Part shown: positions 4,170 through 44,061 of the stretch, one piece after another
How positions within the stretch are numbered: position 1 is the first letter of the stretch
How the letters are laid out: every line of letters starts with the position of its first letter
DNA from: a virus
Strand: one strand, 5' to 3'
Virus record (IMG/VR): IMGVR_UViG_3300032214_000566
Location: 1 to 64,000 of that record
DNA length: 64,000 bases
Position numbers and translations under genes: made by a program
The notes under the pieces: model-generated
The model's database searches: none
What the model saw: the letters and a program-made list of their open reading frames with translations, nothing else
What the model was told of the DNA's origin: nothing

Positions 4170-4985
4170 TTACCATGTTCTACATGCCCAATATCTTGGT
4201 TTCCATCTTGGTCCAGGATTATCACAATTGTGTCTTGCTCTAAATGATCGTCTACGTTCAGGATTGTTCTTTTTGATAACCATTCTTTTTCCTTTTGCCG
4301 ATTTACCACCGAACCCGAAGTTTACTTTAACAACCTTACCTTTATCGTTTTTAACGTACACCTTGAACTTTTTAATGTCTCCTTGCATAATCTTACCAAG
4401 TTGAACTTTTCGTCCCTGATACTCCGCCTCATTCAACATTGAAGTTGGTTTGATTGAGGTTTTTTGAACTATTCCATATACATCTTCGTATATAGTCGTC
4501 TCATCCATTTCTTCATCTTTTGAAAAATCCAAATAGACTCCAATGAAATCATTCAAATCCATTATAATTCTTTCTTTGTTCAATTGTCTTCTTTGGTCAT
4601 TCACTACACTAGATTCAACATCCGTTTTGAGGTATTTAGAAAACAAACTTTTTAATTTTTTTAACAACTTAAGCCTATCTTCATTGTCAAATTCTGGAAC
4701 TCCTCTTTCATTATCTTTTTGGAAATCTTCCTCAACGTCAAACTCATCATAATCCTTATCTAACTCTAAGTGGATGTATTCAAGAATGGTACCCATTATG
4801 TTTCTTCTATTTTCGAATATAGTTTTTTCATCGTATTTACTTATCCTTCTTAAAAAAACTCTAATAGATGTCATTAATTTTTTAAGTTCCTGTGTAGCAT
4901 CGATATCACGACGATACTCAGGTAACTCGTGACGCAAATAACCATCTTCCAATAAAACCTTTCTGATAATACTTGTTAAATCCAT
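4170..4985 (-). CDS. Hypothetical protein with a C-terminal basic domain common in T4-like phages (DUF6321-like)
   Basis: EAEYQGRKV...KVNFG...RRSFRARHNC...RYWACRTW; start moved to MDLTSII, after the terminator at about 5008-5036 and TATTTATA at 4990. Confidence 0.7.
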   Translation of the reverse strand: MDLTSIIRKVLLEDGYLRHELPEYRRDIDATQELKKLMTSIRVFLRRISKYDEKTIFENRRNIMGTILEYIHLELDKDYDEFDVEEDFQKDNERGVPEFDNEDRLKLLKKLKSLFSKYLKTDVESSVVNDQRRQLNKERIIMDLNDFIGVYLDFSKDEEMDETTIYEDVYGIVQKTSIKPTSMLNEAEYQGRKVQLGKIMQGDIKKFKVYVKNDKGKVVKVNFGFGGKSAKGKRMVIKKNNPERRRSFRARHNCDNPGPRWKPRYWACRTW

Positions 4986-6548: not shown

Positions 6549-7370
6549 AAAAAGAACGCTGAGATTACACGTTTCAGTGAGAAAACTTTAGAAGGATTAT
6601 TGGTTCCCTTCGTATCCACCATCTTTTGAATGGTATTCCTCAGTGACGATTATTTAGGTGAATCACTCCTTGAGGTAACAGTTACTCTCTTATTACTTGA
6701 CTCTCTTCGAGGATGCCTCCCCAACTCTTCCTTGCGGGAATAGAGGTGTTTGGTAAGAATATCGTCAAACTTGCGGTTTAATCGATGCAATGAACGGCTC
6801 ATTACTATGTAGTCACCTTTCACTGTTACCTGACGGACACTTTTGCTTTACGTTATATCATGAATTTTACTTCCTAATTGTAAAATAAAGTTTTTGTGTC
6901 GTGGATTGGAGAAGTAGTGGTCCGTCACGGGCTTCGCTATCTTTTGAACAACGAAATACTCAACTACTCCTTGAAATGTCCCCATTTCCATATTTTAAGA
7001 CCACTTCGAGATTAATCCCTTGGTAGAGATTTATCAAGGACAATGTCAGCACCACCTGTTTGTTGTCATACCTTTCGGTTTTAAGTACCCTTTGATATTG
7101 GAACACGCAATTATGAAATCGGATAACTTCATTTTTTGCAATATTCCTACGGGTTATTCCTATTGGTGTTCCCACCTCAATCAGACGACCCACATCGCCA
7201 AATCACTTAACCAGTTTCCCTACAGCGTTGCCCTCGGTACTCAAGGTTAAGCGGTATCCCGCTTGTATACTCGACCTCGATTACTCAAGGCGCAAACCCA
7301 ACACACTAGAGGGTTCACTTTATCCTACTTTCGTAGTTTATTTTATGGACTATATACGGCCCAAGATCTT
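6549..7370 (-). ncRNA. Large structured ncRNA, GOLLD-like (about 820 nt)
   Basis: No credible ORF; GC-richer than the flanks; many hairpins with GAAA/GCAA tetraloops (CTAC-GAAA-GTAG, ACC-GAAA-GGT, TTCCC-GCAA-GGAA); 3' segment GTGTAATCTCAGCG as I recall from GOLLD RNAs; own promoter and terminator. Confidence 0.75.
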
Positions 7371-7852: not shown

Positions 7853-10087
7853 TTAATTAAAAAAAGTATCAGTTAATTCATTATTAACGTCAATCTCATC
7901 TAATTTATCCTCTAACCATTCCGCAAATGATTCTTTGCTACTAAAAATTGTTTTTACGTCATCGTGTTTCTTAACCGGTATTTCAACAACCTTGGTTGCT
8001 CCATTCAAATAATGTGATCCACTATTTTTCTTACAGAATTTAACCTTACCGTTATCGCCAATTAAAATTAAATCATGTACAATACCATCACAATCAATAC
8101 CGTTACCAGGTACGATAATATATTCCATATCTTTAAATGGTGAGTAATCCCTATAACCATCAACATGTGGTATCATTTCTTCATCACCCACTTCTTCATT
8201 AATTTTACCACCCCAATTTTCTGAAGGTTGTTCTAAGTCAGGTTGTAATCTATAGTCAGTTGTTAACTCCTCACCCTCTTCTATGTCTCTAGAAGCAACT
8301 AAGAATCTTTGTTTACCGTCAACCAATTCATTGTGACAATTTGGATCATCGCTGTGATTATGTAGTTTACCAAGTTCCGTGAATTCGTACTTATTACCTA
8401 ACTCTATTATATTATGTAATAAACCAACAACATCACCCTTTTTCATTTTTTTATTGGCGAACACACCTTTTCCTTGTATTTTACTATCACCCACTAAATA
8501 TTTACCATCTTTTTTTACACTTTCAGTAACTGTTTGAGTGTTCGCAATTTCCGATTTTAAAACTTTAACAAATTCTTCCTGTATCGCTTTAGTTAATTGT
8601 ACATAACTTGTTATTTGTTCAGGATTAATCGCTTGTGGTTGTGCACCTTCTTTCTCTATCTGCTTCATAGCCGCAAGAATTTGTGGTTCAGATAGCCTTT
8701 TATACTTCGCCAATTTAGATTTAATATCGTTAACGAAGTTATTACTACCTTTATATTCACTAATCGCAGCTAACCTATTGTCATCATAAACAACCGGTTC
8801 CTCTTTTTTATTTCTATACAGGTAACTTATTCCTGAAATATTTGTAATACACTTATGTCCTCCAGAATTTGCTTGAATAACGTCCCACCCATTAACTGTA
8901 ATTCTATCTAATAAATCCTTTTGTTTTGTCGTTAGATTTCTATATAGTTTTTGAGATATGTTACCAATAATTGATAATAACTTTTCATCGGCGTTAACTT
9001 TAAAAGACTCTCTGTTACCATATATAGCAACTAAATCTTTCAATGTGAATCCAACTGATTCGTATTCCGCCTCAAATTCCGATACTCTTTTAAGTGTTCC
9101 AAAAGTAATTTTCATACCTTTTAAATCACTTTCAAATTTAGATAAAACAACATTCTTCATTTCACCTAAATCCACACCTTTTAATGCTCTATCCTCTTTA
9201 AAAGGATTACAAGATGCTTGGACTAAACCTAAAGGCCAAGCAATCACAATAAAGTCAGCATCAGGATTATTTTTAAATGGTGTGTACCTATCATAAGAAC
9301 CAGGTTTAATCATCGACCCACCACCATATTGTACAATGATATTACCCTCTAATCTTACATTTGGATTAACTTTTTGTTTTTCAATGTAATTAGCCTGATT
9401 TTGAACCAACTCTTCAGGTGTTGCATATCCTTTCGTTGATATTTGTTTTTTAATGTTATTTAAAATACTTAAAAGAGATGGTTGAGCACCTAATACAATT
9501 TGTTCTAAAAATTCAGGTTTGTTTTTAAATGCCAATAATAATTTATTGGTAACCAATCCCATTACAAACTTATTATCTCTTAAACTACTATCTTTATCAA
9601 AATTAAGTAGGTAATTCATTACCATTTCAGGTGTGATCTTATTTACTGCAAAATTAGCAGAGTCGACAGTTGATATAATATTAATGTCTTCTGTTGGGAA
9701 TATCTCTTTTGGTGAAACCACTTGTGATATTGTTTCGACATTGGATCTAGATGGTCTAAAGTTTGTTGAGGTCTCGGGCTCAACACCTGCTTGTGTGTCG
9801 TGGTGGTCTGTATGAATAACAAACATCGGTTTTCCATGTGCAAAATCAACAAGAACCGGCATCACATCACCACTAGCATCTGGTTTTTTAATTGAGAACT
9901 CCTTATCTCCGTATTGGATTATTTCGGCATCTACTACTTTAATACCATAATTTTCTAAATAATTTTTCATACCAATAGCGGTAGTAACACCGTCTAAATC
10001 TTGGTGGAAATAAATTTTAGCTTTTTTATATCTTTTAGCAAGTTCGTTAATATTCCTTATACCCGACTCGTTTAATAATTTTCTCAT
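7853..10087 (-). CDS. DHH-family phosphoesterase fused to a SET-domain (lysine methyltransferase) module and a further C-terminal domain
   Basis: HQDLDG, VDF, TDHH and GGH (DHH/DHHA1); SKIQGKGVFA...NHSDDPNC...RDIEEGEELTTDY (SET); start moved to MRKLLNES. Confidence 0.85.
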   Translation of the reverse strand: MRKLLNESGIRNINELAKRYKKAKIYFHQDLDGVTTAIGMKNYLENYGIKVVDAEIIQYGDKEFSIKKPDASGDVMPVLVDFAHGKPMFVIHTDHHDTQAGVEPETSTNFRPSRSNVETISQVVSPKEIFPTEDINIISTVDSANFAVNKITPEMVMNYLLNFDKDSSLRDNKFVMGLVTNKLLLAFKNKPEFLEQIVLGAQPSLLSILNNIKKQISTKGYATPEELVQNQANYIEKQKVNPNVRLEGNIIVQYGGGSMIKPGSYDRYTPFKNNPDADFIVIAWPLGLVQASCNPFKEDRALKGVDLGEMKNVVLSKFESDLKGMKITFGTLKRVSEFEAEYESVGFTLKDLVAIYGNRESFKVNADEKLLSIIGNISQKLYRNLTTKQKDLLDRITVNGWDVIQANSGGHKCITNISGISYLYRNKKEEPVVYDDNRLAAISEYKGSNNFVNDIKSKLAKYKRLSEPQILAAMKQIEKEGAQPQAINPEQITSYVQLTKAIQEEFVKVLKSEIANTQTVTESVKKDGKYLVGDSKIQGKGVFANKKMKKGDVVGLLHNIIELGNKYEFTELGKLHNHSDDPNCHNELVDGKQRFLVASRDIEEGEELTTDYRLQPDLEQPSENWGGKINEEVGDEEMIPHVDGYRDYSPFKDMEYIIVPGNGIDCDGIVHDLILIGDNGKVKFCKKNSGSHYLNGATKVVEIPVKKHDDVKTIFSSKESFAEWLEDKLDEIDVNNELTDTFFN

Positions 10088-10123
10088 ATTAATAAATACA
10101 ACCACATAATAAAAAATCCCACA

Positions 10124-10972
10124 TTACTGTGGGATTTCATTTATCACCTCTAAAGTCTTAAAGTATTCAATTCTACTTTCAGCGATTTGTTTATAATTAG
10201 GACTTAATTCAATACCTAACCATCTACGTTCAAGCATTTGTGCCGCCACTAAACTTGTTCCACTACCAGCAAATGGGTCTAAAACTACATCGTTCTTGTA
10301 GGATAATATTTTAATCGCCTTGGTGGGGATGTCCATCGAGAACGTTGCCTTGGTGAGTGATTTAGTATCTGCAAAGTAATTCCACTGGCCAAACACAAGT
10401 TCCATAAACTCTTTCTTATCAGTCTCTTCATAAACTATTTTTTTCTTTAATGTCCCATCTTCCTGTTCAATGTCGGTTGGAACTCCTAACCACTGTGGTT
10501 CTCCTTTAACTTTTTTAATATGATGTTTTTTATAAGCTAAAATCACACATTCTTTTGGGTTATAGATATATGGGCTAGATGGTGACATCCATGAACCCCA
10601 CGCGGTTGTTTTACTTCTATGTGGTGATTGTTCTTCGAGGTCAACGATACCAAAGAATCCATACCCAATCTCTTTCATAATTTGCCACATTTCAGAGACA
10701 AAGAAAATTCTTCCTCCCTTTTTTTGTCTGTTAATCTCATAAGGAATGTTAAGGGCAATTCTACCATCATCCTTTAATAATCTATATGCTTCACTTAACC
10801 AATTTTTGGCAAACTCCACATACTCGCTGAATTCAACGTCATCTTCGTGAACATCGTAAGCTATTCCTACACCATAAGGTGGTGATGTAACTATTAGGTC
10901 CACAGATCCTTCCGGTAATGTTTTCATTACTTCAGTACAATCTCCATTTATTATTTTTCCTGTTTCTATCAT
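10124..10972 (-). CDS. DNA methyltransferase, N4-C/N6-A beta class
   Basis: VTSPPY catalytic motif, then VLDPFAGSGT SAM-binding motif. Confidence 0.92.
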   Translation of the reverse strand: MIETGKIINGDCTEVMKTLPEGSVDLIVTSPPYGVGIAYDVHEDDVEFSEYVEFAKNWLSEAYRLLKDDGRIALNIPYEINRQKKGGRIFFVSEMWQIMKEIGYGFFGIVDLEEQSPHRSKTTAWGSWMSPSSPYIYNPKECVILAYKKHHIKKVKGEPQWLGVPTDIEQEDGTLKKKIVYEETDKKEFMELVFGQWNYFADTKSLTKATFSMDIPTKAIKILSYKNDVVLDPFAGSGTSLVAAQMLERRWLGIELSPNYKQIAESRIEYFKTLEVINEIPQ

Positions 10973-11404: not shown

Positions 11405-11800
11405 TTAAATTGCCTGTGCTATTATTTGTGCTAATTTATACCCTGTGAATGCACCTATTGCTGCCGAACCCGGTAAAACAATAAATTTACCCAACATAGT
11501 TTCATACTTCTTCCTATTAACAATATAAGAAATTAATATATAATAGACAATATAGTTCATTAAAACTAAAAAGTCTAGTTCTTTTGCGGCAAAAACAACT
11601 ATTGAATTGCCGAGAAACCCCCACATAAAGTTAATGAAGGTTTCACGGATTAATTCGTTTGGCGTTGTAATCGCGTCTAATACGTTTATTTCCTTATCTA
11701 ATCCTGTTTTACTTTTCAAGGGTTTCGATGTGGTGTTGGAGGTACCAGAGTGCCTTTCTGAGGTCTTCAAGCTCCTTGTCTTTTCCTTTTTTTCCTGCAC
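11405..11800 (-). CDS. Hypothetical membrane protein (true start probably near 11720)
   Basis: Three hydrophobic segments; the 5' part overlaps the DUF3310 gene. Confidence 0.6.
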   Translation of the reverse strand: MQEKKEKTRSLKTSERHSGTSNTTSKPLKSKTGLDKEINVLDAITTPNELIRETFINFMWGFLGNSIVVFAAKELDFLVLMNYIVYYILISYIVNRKKYETMLGKFIVLPGSAAIGAFTGYKLAQIIAQAI

Positions 11801-11921
11801 GTGATATATATTTTACTGTGTTTCCTAAACTAAATCCTAACTCCCAAGCATCAATTACTTTGATTGCTTCATATGGATTATCTTGCCCACCATAATGTTG
11901 TGGATGATTAACTTGTTCCAT
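11709..11921 (-). CDS. DUF3310 family protein
   Basis: VNHPQHY...EAIKVI...GNTVKYISRAGKK...EDLRKALWYL. Confidence 0.9.
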   Translation of the reverse strand: MEQVNHPQHYGGQDNPYEAIKVIDAWELGFSLGNTVKYISRAGKKGKDKELEDLRKALWYLQHHIETLEK

Positions 11922-13051
11922 TATTCTTCTCTATATTCTTTTAATAATTCATCATTAGAAATTGTTCTGTATTTTTCACTTAATCCTGACACATTTACAT
12001 TAGAATTCATATTCATCTTAATTTCTAATATTTCTTCAGCAGTATCCAATGATTTTGAAACTTCTTTAATGATTTTATATGGATCTGCGTTCGAACCCGG
12101 TCTTCTATCTTCAACATAACCTTTCCATTCTTTTGCCGTGTCCTGTGGAACTCTGATGGATGCTCCCCTATCAGATACACCCCAACTGAATTTATCGATA
12201 GATTGTGTCTCAAACCCACCAGTCAATCTTAAATGATTGTTTGACCCATATGCGTTTATGTGTTCTTCATGTCTTGATGCGAATGAATTAAAAATCGCCA
12301 TGAAATAATCGTACCCACCTTTGTCTCTCATTTTATCGTTTGAGAAGTTGGCATGTAATCCTGAACCATTCCATTCTCCGTGGGTAAGTGGTTTAGGGTG
12401 TAAATCGATATGGTAGTTATAGTTCTCTGAAATCTTGTACAAGAAATATCTACTCATCCATAGATCATCACCACCTTTTAATTTACCTTTTGAAAACACT
12501 TGGTATTCCCACTGACCTAATGCAACTTCCGCATTTGTTCCTGTGATATCAATACCATATTCCAAACACATATTTAAATGGTCTTCAACAAAATTACGAC
12601 CAACAACATTATGACCTACACCACAGTAATACTCACCTTGACCTTTAAGGATGTTTCTTTTGTGTCCTAAAATACCTCCGTTAATTTCTTCACGGATAAA
12701 ATACTCTTGTTCAAAACCAAACCAAAGACCTTCTTCTTCTTCATTTAATTTTGCCCTCATGTTAGATTCATGTGGTTTACCATCTGAATCCATAACCTCA
12801 CATAAAACATACACGGTACTGTTATGTAATGGGAATCCTTCTTTTGTGTAAACTCTAACTGGTTTTAATATTCTATCGGAATTTCCAGTATCTGCCTGAT
12901 TTGTTGATGACCCATCAAAATTCCAAACCGGTAACTTACAATCCTGTACTCTGTTTTTTATTGATTCGTAGTCTACGATCTTAACTTTACTTCTTAAATT
13001 TGGTTCAGGCTTATATCCATCAAGCCAAACATACTCTAACTTAACTTTCAT
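11921..13051 (-). CDS. glnII: Glutamine synthetase type II
   Basis: LEYVWLDG, WNFDGSST, FGFEQEY, NAEVALGQWEYQ, WNGSGLHANFS, RGASIRVP, EDRRPGSNADPY. Confidence 0.95.
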   Translation of the reverse strand: MKVKLEYVWLDGYKPEPNLRSKVKIVDYESIKNRVQDCKLPVWNFDGSSTNQADTGNSDRILKPVRVYTKEGFPLHNSTVYVLCEVMDSDGKPHESNMRAKLNEEEEGLWFGFEQEYFIREEINGGILGHKRNILKGQGEYYCGVGHNVVGRNFVEDHLNMCLEYGIDITGTNAEVALGQWEYQVFSKGKLKGGDDLWMSRYFLYKISENYNYHIDLHPKPLTHGEWNGSGLHANFSNDKMRDKGGYDYFMAIFNSFASRHEEHINAYGSNNHLRLTGGFETQSIDKFSWGVSDRGASIRVPQDTAKEWKGYVEDRRPGSNADPYKIIKEVSKSLDTAEEILEIKMNMNSNVNVSGLSEKYRTISNDELLKEYREE

Positions 13052-41850: not shown

Positions 41851-44061
41851 TTAAAAATCCAATTTAACAGGATACTGCTGAATACCTTGTCGTTTTTCAG
41901 GTGACTGTATCTTAGATACAACCATAAGCTCTTTTTCATCGTTGTAAAGAGCAACTTCCGACACATAAGGAGCTGACCCATCCCAAGTTGGGTTAGTAGA
42001 ACTTAAAAATTGAGTTTGTCCTAAATTACACAGATAATTCATTACATAGATAGTTGCTTGTATGTCAGTTTGTATCGCACCGTAGAAATAATATTCACCC
42101 CCAAAGTTTAGTGTCACCCCACTATTTGCCGGTGTAGGTAATGTAATATAATTATTCAAATTATATATCGAAGCATTATCATACATATCTTTAGTGATTT
42201 GTATTGTAGTACCTGTCAAACCTGTTACAGTTAATTTACCATTTAATGTTGATGCCGATAATTGTGACATAACATCAATTTCTTTCCATAGTGTTGGATT
42301 AGGTCTTGTGGTACCACTTGATACTTTTTGAACTAATACCTTCATCTCATTCGCAGTATACCCTGTAGGTATCGTTGGGTTGCCTGACACTAAGAAAGGA
42401 AACTCACTACCAAATTTTAAAAATATATTATAGGTTGGTTGCGTAGGGTCTAAAAGACTCGGTGTTAATTTAGTATAATAATTACAGTGTAGTGAATTAG
42501 TAAACGCGCTGTTATTGAATCTATACGTCACAAAAACGGACTCAGTATTTGCACTTAACAAACCTTCGTCTTCACCCATAACTCCGTCACACGCATTCGG
42601 TATGATTGTACCAACTTTAGGTGCCGGTAAGGTCCATGAACGATTAGATTTATAATTCAATGCCGCAATTATTTCGTCATCATCAAATATCACCATTTTA
42701 TAATCAGGGAAAACTTTACCAACTCTACTAGGGTACCCATTACCGTTAACGTGAGTATCCCATAAATTATAATATCTTAATCCAGGATTATTAAATTTAA
42801 CATCCTTTTTAGACTGTATATAATAAGGTTGGAATAAATCAACCTGTGTAAATCCACTTGGGTCTGTGTAAAAATCTTCACCAATAGTTGCATTAGTGTT
42901 CTTGTGCCACATCAACCAAGGAATACTTAATTTAAAGTTTCTTGCCTGTCCGGTCGCACCAGGATCAGCAGAATCATATTCTTGTTGTGCAAATTTTTCT
43001 CCATAGAAATTATCAATTGCTTGGTTAGTATAATGAATAATTGCTATAGATTTTTGGTCACTCGGACTTAATACTATATTTTGGTCCATTGAATTAGTAA
43101 AATAAACCGATCCCGTATCAACTTGACCATCATTGGATTTATACCCAAAATATTCTTTTGAACCTGTATATCCTGTTGATTTATAATAATTATAATCTAA
43201 AACTTGGTTCGAGAAGACACCCGCCGGAGACTCAGTCCAAGGAATATTCATATTCCATACTTTAACATCCGATTGGGAGACATCACAATTTGTTTCATAA
43301 TTAAATACGTTTGTTGCCCAATACAATTGTGGTGTTACCGAATCATACAATGCGGTCATACCCGAAGGGTAGAATAAAATATTGGAATAACCTGAATACC
43401 CCATAGACTGGAAGTTAGGTAATTGTCTATCGACTTGTATCGTCACTGTAGATGCGGTTGATGTGTTACCCGTGATACCAACAACGACATAAGTGAACAT
43501 AGGAGCATTACCACTTAAAGGAGTGATTGAATTTGTTGTGAACAGAGTCAATATCATTCCAGGTGTTACGGTTCCAGAAACAGAAGGGTTAATTGAATTA
43601 CTACTAATCACAAATGTAGTACCTGAGCTTAATCCACTATTCGCGACATTAAAATTAGGATTAATAGTGTATGATGACGAGGTATACGCACTAAAATTAA
43701 ATGTGTTTGCGGTTGACCCCGTAAAAAATCCTCTTGGTGCTGCAGAATTAAAGATATTATCAACAAAAGACGCATCATAAGGAATACCATAAGTAGTTCC
43801 TGAAGTTGAGTCTAAGAATAATGGGTATTTAACATGGTGTCTATTTTTTTCAGGTACCGGTGTTAAATTCTGAGCATTGTATTGTGGTGACAACACGTTT
43901 AATTGTGATGGAACCATATTGTTAACACAACCATAACAAACTTCACTATCACCTATCTGAAAATATGCGATATTGAATTTTCCTTGCGACATTTTTTTTC
44001 TTGCCGCATCCGTAAGTATTGTACTTATTAATGGTCCTGTTGTTTTATTTATGTATGACAT
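41851..44061 (-). CDS. Virion structural protein (baseplate or tail-associated)
   Basis: ILTDAARKK...YFQIGDSEV N-terminus and YVSEVALYND...VSK C-terminus, typical of tail-collar/baseplate proteins. Confidence 0.7.
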   Translation of the reverse strand: MSYINKTTGPLISTILTDAARKKMSQGKFNIAYFQIGDSEVCYGCVNNMVPSQLNVLSPQYNAQNLTPVPEKNRHHVKYPLFLDSTSGTTYGIPYDASFVDNIFNSAAPRGFFTGSTANTFNFSAYTSSSYTINPNFNVANSGLSSGTTFVISSNSINPSVSGTVTPGMILTLFTTNSITPLSGNAPMFTYVVVGITGNTSTASTVTIQVDRQLPNFQSMGYSGYSNILFYPSGMTALYDSVTPQLYWATNVFNYETNCDVSQSDVKVWNMNIPWTESPAGVFSNQVLDYNYYKSTGYTGSKEYFGYKSNDGQVDTGSVYFTNSMDQNIVLSPSDQKSIAIIHYTNQAIDNFYGEKFAQQEYDSADPGATGQARNFKLSIPWLMWHKNTNATIGEDFYTDPSGFTQVDLFQPYYIQSKKDVKFNNPGLRYYNLWDTHVNGNGYPSRVGKVFPDYKMVIFDDDEIIAALNYKSNRSWTLPAPKVGTIIPNACDGVMGEDEGLLSANTESVFVTYRFNNSAFTNSLHCNYYTKLTPSLLDPTQPTYNIFLKFGSEFPFLVSGNPTIPTGYTANEMKVLVQKVSSGTTRPNPTLWKEIDVMSQLSASTLNGKLTVTGLTGTTIQITKDMYDNASIYNLNNYITLPTPANSGVTLNFGGEYYFYGAIQTDIQATIYVMNYLCNLGQTQFLSSTNPTWDGSAPYVSEVALYNDEKELMVVSKIQSPEKRQGIQQYPVKLDF

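Follow-up and report, generated by a model that had tools for sequence, protein, structure and literature searches.

A jumbo-phage gene fusing a DHH phosphoesterase to a SET methyltransferase, with conserved prohead-protease-type motifs at its module boundaries

The stretch of DNA analyzed here (the window) comprises 64,000 nucleotides, positions 1 to 64,000 of IMG/VR record IMGVR_UViG_3300032214_000566, and is part of a 96.9-kb fragment with an estimated completeness of 33%. Our subject is a gene on its minus strand that joins a DHH/DHHA1 phosphoesterase to a SET-type protein methyltransferase. The list of open reading frames (ORFs) in the window gives it as a 750-amino-acid (aa) ORF opening with a GTG, at 7853..10105 on the minus strand. 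Judged by homolog comparison, the real start is the ATG at 10087, which yields a 744-aa protein (P0001; window 7856-10087, minus strand): we preferred this codon because every homolog begins at the matching position and because the GTG extension, six codons long, overlaps a terminator upstream. The features of the gene are listed below from its 5' end, with a slash marking the predicted cleavage position in a motif.

10067..10087, minus strand: leader or propeptide, residues 1-7 (MRKLLNE), with an L-x-E end before a conserved SGIR; predicted local distance difference test (pLDDT) score <50 for residues 1-10
9632..10066, minus strand: DHH catalytic domain, residues ~8-152, with motifs I-IV (D30/D32, D81, D94-H95-H96, D142), assigned from Pfam, alignments and fold
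9359..9631, minus strand: helical insert between DHH and DHHA1, residues ~153-243, assigned from the secondary structure of model m45cb6100ce1c
8798..9358, minus strand: derived DHHA1-like domain, residues ~244-430, with an invariant G409-G410-H411 and a long insertion, assigned from alignments and the model
8540..8797, minus strand: C-terminal helical module of the core, residues ~431-516, matching phrog_4046
8510..8539, minus strand: junction 1, a disordered linker (pLDDT <50), residues 517-526, with V520-T-E522/S (VTE codons 8522-8530)
8246..8509, minus strand: minimal SET lysine-methyltransferase domain, residues ~527-614, with GxG, NHS and ELTTDY motifs
8183..8245, minus strand: junction 2, a disordered linker (pLDDT <50), residues 615-635, with I629-N-E631/E (INE codons 8195-8203)
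7973..8182, minus strand: tail beta-module, residues ~636-705 (DGYRDYSP...VVEIP), a module that is mobile and widespread (profile A5)
7856..7972, minus strand: C-terminal tail helices, residues ~706-744 (model ma14171ce814e, pLDDT >90), specific to tail type 1
7853-7855, minus strand: stop codon

An earlier note on this DNA had called a DHH/DHHA1 domain, a helical insert, a SET domain and an extra C-terminal domain, and motifs, Pfam and structural models agree with each of these calls. It had also placed [LIV]-x-E motifs at the domain boundaries, where we find them as LNE/S (residues 5-8), VTE/S (520-523) and INE/E (629-632). Counted in P0001 by itself, such motifs number 13 against 13.5 expected, so a single sequence offers no evidence that they mean anything. 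Conservation is more discriminating: in 17 non-redundant SET-containing forms just six of the 13 are retained, half of them being the leader end (L5-N-E7), junction 1 and junction 2.

We compared the three sites with a control in which each linker's own residues were permuted in 2000 shuffles. The leader ends exactly in [LIV]-x-E in 41/41 non-redundant homologs (shuffled mean 17.6), the junction 1 motif is present in 33 of the 34 non-redundant extended forms (shuffled mean 11.6 ± 2.6), and the junction 2 motif in 16 of 18 forms (shuffled mean 5.6 ± 1.9); the observed count was reached in 0/2000 shuffles at every site, although, because the homologs are related, these tests overstate independence and are not strict probabilities. 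The residues that flank the junction motifs vary freely while the motifs themselves persist, and they do so across different module combinations. The leader and both junctions fall in low-confidence (pLDDT <50), disordered segments of both structural models, and cores that occur without partner modules terminate just before junction 1. Among SET-tail linkers from other protein contexts, which are shorter, 0/24 contained an [LIV]-x-E; the junction 2 motif thus looks like a lineage-specific addition.

A protease of matching type is encoded in the lineage. The relative G001 (292 kb, 99% complete) has local gene order in common with the window, at protein identities of 46-94%, and lacks the SET domain and tail altogether. 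It encodes a T4 gp21-type prohead protease (PF03420, Peptidase_S77, 88.5 bits), as does a second relative, G002 (229 kb; PF03420, 84.1 bits), in which the DHH-SET-tail fusion directly follows a DNA methylase gene. The gp23-type capsid protein of G001 (213 bits) carries INE/A at residue 60, and a scaffold-like protein adjoining the capsid gene contains several VTE/S and LIE/S sites. In phage T4, gp21 cleaves after L/I-X-E and propeptides of 7-65 residues are lost; the propeptide removed from gp23 is 65 residues long, the capsid-targeting sequences of the internal proteins (IP) are 10-19 residues, and the packaged enzyme Alt loses residues from both of its ends (PMC9026906).

The leader of P0001 is one of many in this lineage. 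In G001, 31 of 345 proteins (~9%) open with one of three stereotyped leaders, compared with 2 of 1,654 internal Met controls. These leaders are of a 'MKIIITESQ' type (16 proteins), a 'M+xLI+xILKE' type (9) and a 'MNLQENI+RI' type (6), and one of the proteins that bear them is encoded beside the capsid gene. The leader codons differ synonymously and the DNA upstream is not conserved, indicating that selection acts on the leader peptide; the same two observations rule out a DNA-level cassette as the source of the leaders. Similar leaders occur in the window on minus-strand ORFs starting at 2421, 3807, 4142, 4985, 20664, 26301, 30752 and 41176. A separate observation concerns one G001 product (L099:17852-18772, minus strand) with a 'MRIIITESQ' leader and endolysin/transglycosylase and LysM matches, which is a candidate cell-wall hydrolase delivered by the virion.

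The modules of P0001 also exist apart from one another. The earlier note had proposed asking whether relatives encode the domains separately, and they do: core, SET plus tail, and tail are all found by themselves or differently combined, each bearing a leader of the same kind. Among 190 homologs, the core is alone in 40, joined to SET plus tail or to the tail only in 102, to a Cys-motif module with or without an Ntn/AAT-like hydrolase in 47, and to a GNAT domain in 1. Stand-alone SET-plus-tail proteins (213-250 aa) bear leaders of the same kinds. In P0162, a different module is joined to SET through a leader-like 'ILNE/S' junction, and this non-SET module is that of a protein with a leader whose gene neighbors the G001 capsid gene. 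The Cys motif of the alternative core partner reads W-S-x-K-Y-K-x-S-I-x-C-x-x-P-K-G-F-S-Q-R-A-H-C (P0089, P0096, P0106 and P0120); a similar motif, F-R-A-R-H-x-C, is found at the C-terminus of the window protein encoded at 4170-4985 (minus strand).

The tail connects P0001 to virion proteins. Residues ~636-744 matched no library family, and an ESM Atlas search with the tail returned no usable match. Profile A5, built on the tail, finds 2,328 cluster representatives in proteins of 83-4,314 aa. It matches the N-terminus of gp040 of Cellulophaga phage phi4:1 (E 1.2e-9), to which a structural search also pointed; gp040 is annotated as structural from tandem mass spectrometry proteomics and sits in a run of giant virion proteins. 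What P0001 shares with gp040, and with giant virion proteins like it from Bacteroidota phages, is a beta-module of ~65 residues (G-Y-R/K-x-x-S-P ... V-x-E-x-P). In those proteins, 800-3300 aa long, the module is N-terminal and often preceded by SET, and, unlike in P0001, the linker is without [LIV]-x-E. A SET domain followed ~20 residues later by the beta-module is a recurrent cassette, often N-terminal in giant proteins with 'GGWLxxY' repeats. Examples include P0164, P0170, P0171 and P0173-P0179, among others (800-3300 aa), with the cassette at their start or within them; these 'GGWLxxY' giants are probably Bacteroidota-phage virion proteins that carry a lysine methyltransferase.

The reading we favor, and regard as somewhat probable, is that P0001 is a leader-tagged cargo precursor that enters the prohead, undergoes gp21-type trimming, is probably cut at both junctions, and is ejected with the DNA. 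The parts that we infer are targeting, cleavage, ejection and the substrates of both enzymes. One 744-aa precursor would combine a leader with two enzymes, the DHH/DHHA1 phosphoesterase and the SET lysine methyltransferase, and with a beta-module common to virion proteins. The leader, of capsid-targeting type, would bring it into the prohead core, as happens with T4 Alt and IPI-III. A gp21-type prohead protease would clip the leader after E7 and probably also cut both disordered linkers, after E522 and E631; the enzymes, now separate, would be held in the capsid and reach the host along with the DNA. Inside the host, the DHH enzyme would hydrolyze short nucleotides (pGpG, pAp, nanoRNA or signalling nucleotides), and the target of the SET enzyme would be a lysine in a protein of host or phage.

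The earlier note had likewise proposed a head-packaged polyprotein, releasing an anti-CBASS-like enzyme and a methyltransferase on injection. Its domains hold up and its polyprotein idea gains support, the latter through the gp21-type protease in the lineage, the conserved motifs in disordered linkers, the separate leader-bearing modules, the leader classes and the presence of the tail in a virion protein; its anti-CBASS label, considered below with the DHH core, does not. Support for a polyprotein with prohead-protease sites is real, if circumstantial.

The closest precedent is the T4 system of IPI-III, Alt and gp21. Both have a short N-terminal leader ending in L/I-x-E (7 residues here, as in Alt), a gp21-type protease, a gp23-type capsid protein, and enzyme cargo aimed (in our case, presumptively) at host components. 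They differ in that the precursor described here has three modules with internal cut-type sites, that ~9% of G001 proteins are leader-tagged, in three classes, and that DHH and SET, the putative cargo here, are not known as cargo from T4.

Several observations weigh against this reading. The [LIV]-x-E motif is low in information and not enriched in P0001 as a whole. In its simple form at N-termini, [LI]xE, it shows no genome-wide enrichment (18/80; control windows gave 16-20), and a ribonucleotide reductase subunit carries it too; a strict form of the N-terminal motif is ~2-fold enriched genome-wide, and it is only the stereotyped leader classes, not counts of simple [LI]xE, that are informative. 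The contig to which the window belongs, 33% complete, yielded no protease gene. The DHH-core gene lies outside the head module, directly after a DNA methylase gene in 67/75 loci. (The T4 alt and IP genes likewise lie outside the head cluster.) A TATTTAT box, described further below, precedes both structural and replication genes, the latter including helicase and SSB-like genes, and so says nothing on the timing of expression. Finally, the recurrent pairing of SET and tail suggests that the two may act as one unit, in which case a cut at junction 2 would be less needed.

These points give some room to an ordinary cytoplasmic multi-domain enzyme, neither packaged nor cut, in which the [LIV]-x-E motifs are features of leader and linker structure or chance survivors and the fusion serves to co-localize two enzymes of infection. 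The low information content of the motif, its lack of enrichment in the protein and, in simple form, at N-termini genome-wide, the conserved non-structural neighborhood beside a DNA methylase and the phylogenetic relatedness of the homologs all suit it. Set against them are the retention of the motif while its flanks vary and across module combinations, its absence from the same SET-tail linker outside the lineage (0/24), the stereotyped leaders, which are under peptide-level selection and common to unrelated proteins, and the presence of a matching protease in the lineage. We consider a purely cytoplasmic enzyme rather unlikely.

A second alternative accepts packaging and loss of the N-terminal leader, and leaves the rest intact: P0001 would be a small 'polyvalent protein', a fused multi-enzyme injected whole, its internal motifs unused. 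T4 Alt is trimmed at its ends only, the SET-tail unit recurs as an uncut-looking cassette in giant proteins, and polyvalent proteins that are injected form a documented class (PMC5512222). Members of this class, from phages and conjugative elements, resemble P0001 in having several unrelated effector domains on one polypeptide predicted to enter the host with the DNA. They differ in that P0001 is much smaller and lacks their hallmark domains (Pfam finds only DHH and SET); there a peptidase is built in, whereas here the prohead protease would do the processing. The P0001 gene is not beside packaging genes. The survey of these proteins by Iyer et al. (2017) lists neither DHH nor SET (PMC5512222). 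Injection of an uncut fusion is also at odds with junction motifs that are conserved as much as the leader site and lie in disordered, accessible linkers, and with stand-alone cores that stop exactly before junction 1, and we judge it quite unlikely.

What the phosphoesterase does depends on the core, which is a divergent DHH protein. Its Pfam DHH score (PF01368, 21.0 bits, E 4e-4) lies below the gathering score of 28.1, yet two alignments, of 20 and 41 homologs, show no variation at D30/D32, D81, D94-H95-H96, D142 or G409-G410-H411. An AlphaFold model of residues 1-525 (pLDDT 78.6; predicted template modelling score 0.72) has the two-domain DHH plus DHHA1 fold and resembles only DHH-superfamily structures by Foldseek and structure comparison. 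The ~520-aa core is extremely common (>3,598 matches), and its family is very abundant in lake metagenomes. Residues 439-480, within the phrog_4046-like C-terminal helical module, have a second, separate copy in G001 at 251510-251635 (55% identity over 42 aa), so this piece may be a mobile module by itself.

The top Foldseek matches are archaeal RecJ-Cdc45 and RecJ, raising the alternative that the core is a RecJ/Cdc45-like nuclease or replisome factor for phage replication or recombination, with the C-terminal modules as accessories. RecJ models are also the sole NCBIfam matches, and the core is strongly conserved (55-87% identity among homologs). Those models score only 12-17 bits, however, against cutoffs of 360-397 bits, and no OB fold or other DNA-binding domain was seen in the protein; cargo better suits the leader and the SET, GNAT and Ntn-like hydrolase partners, which are effector-like. 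A replication role appears highly doubtful. Membership in the RecJ and archaeal RecJ families themselves (TIGR00644 and NF053576) was rejected at 12.6 and 13.2 bits against equivalog cutoffs of 396.9 and 360.

In the models, the core is structurally nearest to PggH and pAp-phosphatase-type enzymes, whose substrates are linear pGpG and pAp. It shares with NrnA, PggH and pAp-phosphatase DHH-DHHA1 enzymes all of the DHH motifs, the GGH motif and the two-domain fold. It differs from them in its low identity (only ~11-12%), its sub-cutoff Pfam score, and its additional ~90-residue helical insert, long DHHA1 insertion and extra C-terminal helical module.

The earlier note's label, anti-CBASS-like, refers to phage-defense signalling systems based on cyclic oligonucleotides (CBASS), and as an alternative it casts the DHH enzyme as one that degrades the cyclic oligonucleotides used in immune signalling. 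Cleavage of cyclic dinucleotides is known for some DHH/DHHA1 enzymes, and GdpP, DhhP and NrN are among the structural matches of the core. For some jumbo phages, one comparative study led to the prediction that their DHH phosphodiesterases act against nucleotide signalling (PMC7824862). The label nevertheless lacks specific evidence: the core is unrelated to the known anti-CBASS and anti-Pycsar nucleases, which have other folds, including the 2H fold; its nearest structures act on linear pGpG and pAp; and its substrate-binding half (DHHA1) is highly derived. We find this role highly improbable. Acb1 and Apyc1, which counter CBASS and Pycsar, have 2H-phosphoesterase or metallo-beta-lactamase folds. 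The DHH/DHHA1 fold excludes membership in those families, a result that speaks to family and not to a similar activity.

The partner enzyme is more conventional. The SET domain scores 43.9 bits with Pfam PF00856 (gathering score 22.4), its motifs G539-K-G541, N577-H578-S579 and E607...Y612 are invariant in 32 sequences, and the SET fold is present. Judged by these features, it is a canonical minimal lysine methyltransferase, with predicted activity. PBCV-1 vSET and SET8/KMT5A share its GxG, NHS and ELxxDY motifs and its size of ~90-100 residues, without a post-SET Cys cluster. The domain described here differs from them in being bacteriophage-encoded, in always being followed by the beta-module found in virion proteins, and in having a host without histones.

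A bolder extension would treat the prohead-protease motif as a set of 'perforations', along which leader-tagged cargo genes could fuse or split freely to give combinatorial capsid cargo. The DHH enzyme would then be a pre-loaded eraser of defense signals at injection, acting on SAM-AMP (the S-adenosylmethionine-AMP conjugate) of Bacteroidota type III CRISPR (clustered regularly interspaced short palindromic repeats) systems or on cyclic or linear oligonucleotides, and the SET enzyme would methylate a host target before phage genes are expressed. In cells, SAM-AMP is degraded by NrN, itself a DHH enzyme. As a whole, we hold this scenario to be very unlikely.

The T4 class of capsid targeting and gp21 processing is already known, as are both enzyme folds; what is new is a modular, apparently perforated precursor that combines them, and a SET domain as phage cargo. 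In the literature, nothing specific was found on SET or DHH as phage virion cargo, and the surveys consulted describe jumbo-phage DHH proteins only as predicted counter-signalling enzymes. If the favored reading, a packaged and processed precursor, is right, the phage places in its capsid a single precursor, cut by the head protease, that contains both a nucleotide phosphoesterase and a lysine methyltransferase acting on proteins. The 'internal protein' principle of T4 would then cover modular cargo of several enzymes, and the bacteriophage SET domain would gain its first functional setting. A tblastn search of 50,697 phage records for cultured relatives with virion data, using P0001 in full, its tail by itself, P0088 and P0175 as queries, returned only unannotated megaphages or chance matches.

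The lineage is one of uncultured, T4-like jumbo phages from a lake source, probably with Bacteroidota hosts. The fragment is low in GC and carries a tRNA array together with tail fibre, baseplate, ribonucleotide reductase, DnaB-like, UvsX-like and SSB-like genes. In the freshwater 'moraphages', genomes span 200-307 kb, the predicted hosts are Bacteroidota, and glutamine synthetase genes are present (PMC12619734); the lineage of the window, a candidate member, fits these traits. The gene immediately upstream of the DHH-core gene in 67/75 related loci is, in the window, an N6/N4 DNA methylase gene (10124-10972, minus strand), which forms a conserved backbone with a GlnA-like gene (11921-13051) and DUF3310 (11709-11921).

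Two features lie between the methylase gene and the start codon.

10113..10138, minus strand: intrinsic terminator of the upstream DNA methylase gene, with an 11-bp stem, a GTAA loop and a T-run, separating that gene from the DHH-SET gene
10091..10098, minus strand: TATTTATT box, 3 nt upstream of the ATG, a putative promoter element

The strong terminator indicates that the DHH-SET gene forms its own unit. Several genes, with starts at 44061, 30752, 26301, 15336, 10087 and 4985, have a TATTTAT[AT] box only 3-5 nt upstream of their ATG; should it act as a -10-like element, their transcripts would have almost no leader. Overall the box is not enriched (18 occurrences against 15 expected). TATTTAT[AT] or TATAAATA as a marker of late promoters was dropped, lacking enrichment and occurring also before helicase and SSB-like genes. 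On the other side of the gene, ~0.9 kb downstream, the window encodes a full-length GOLLD RNA (6556-6971, minus strand; Rfam RF02032, 323.9 bits, gathering score 150).

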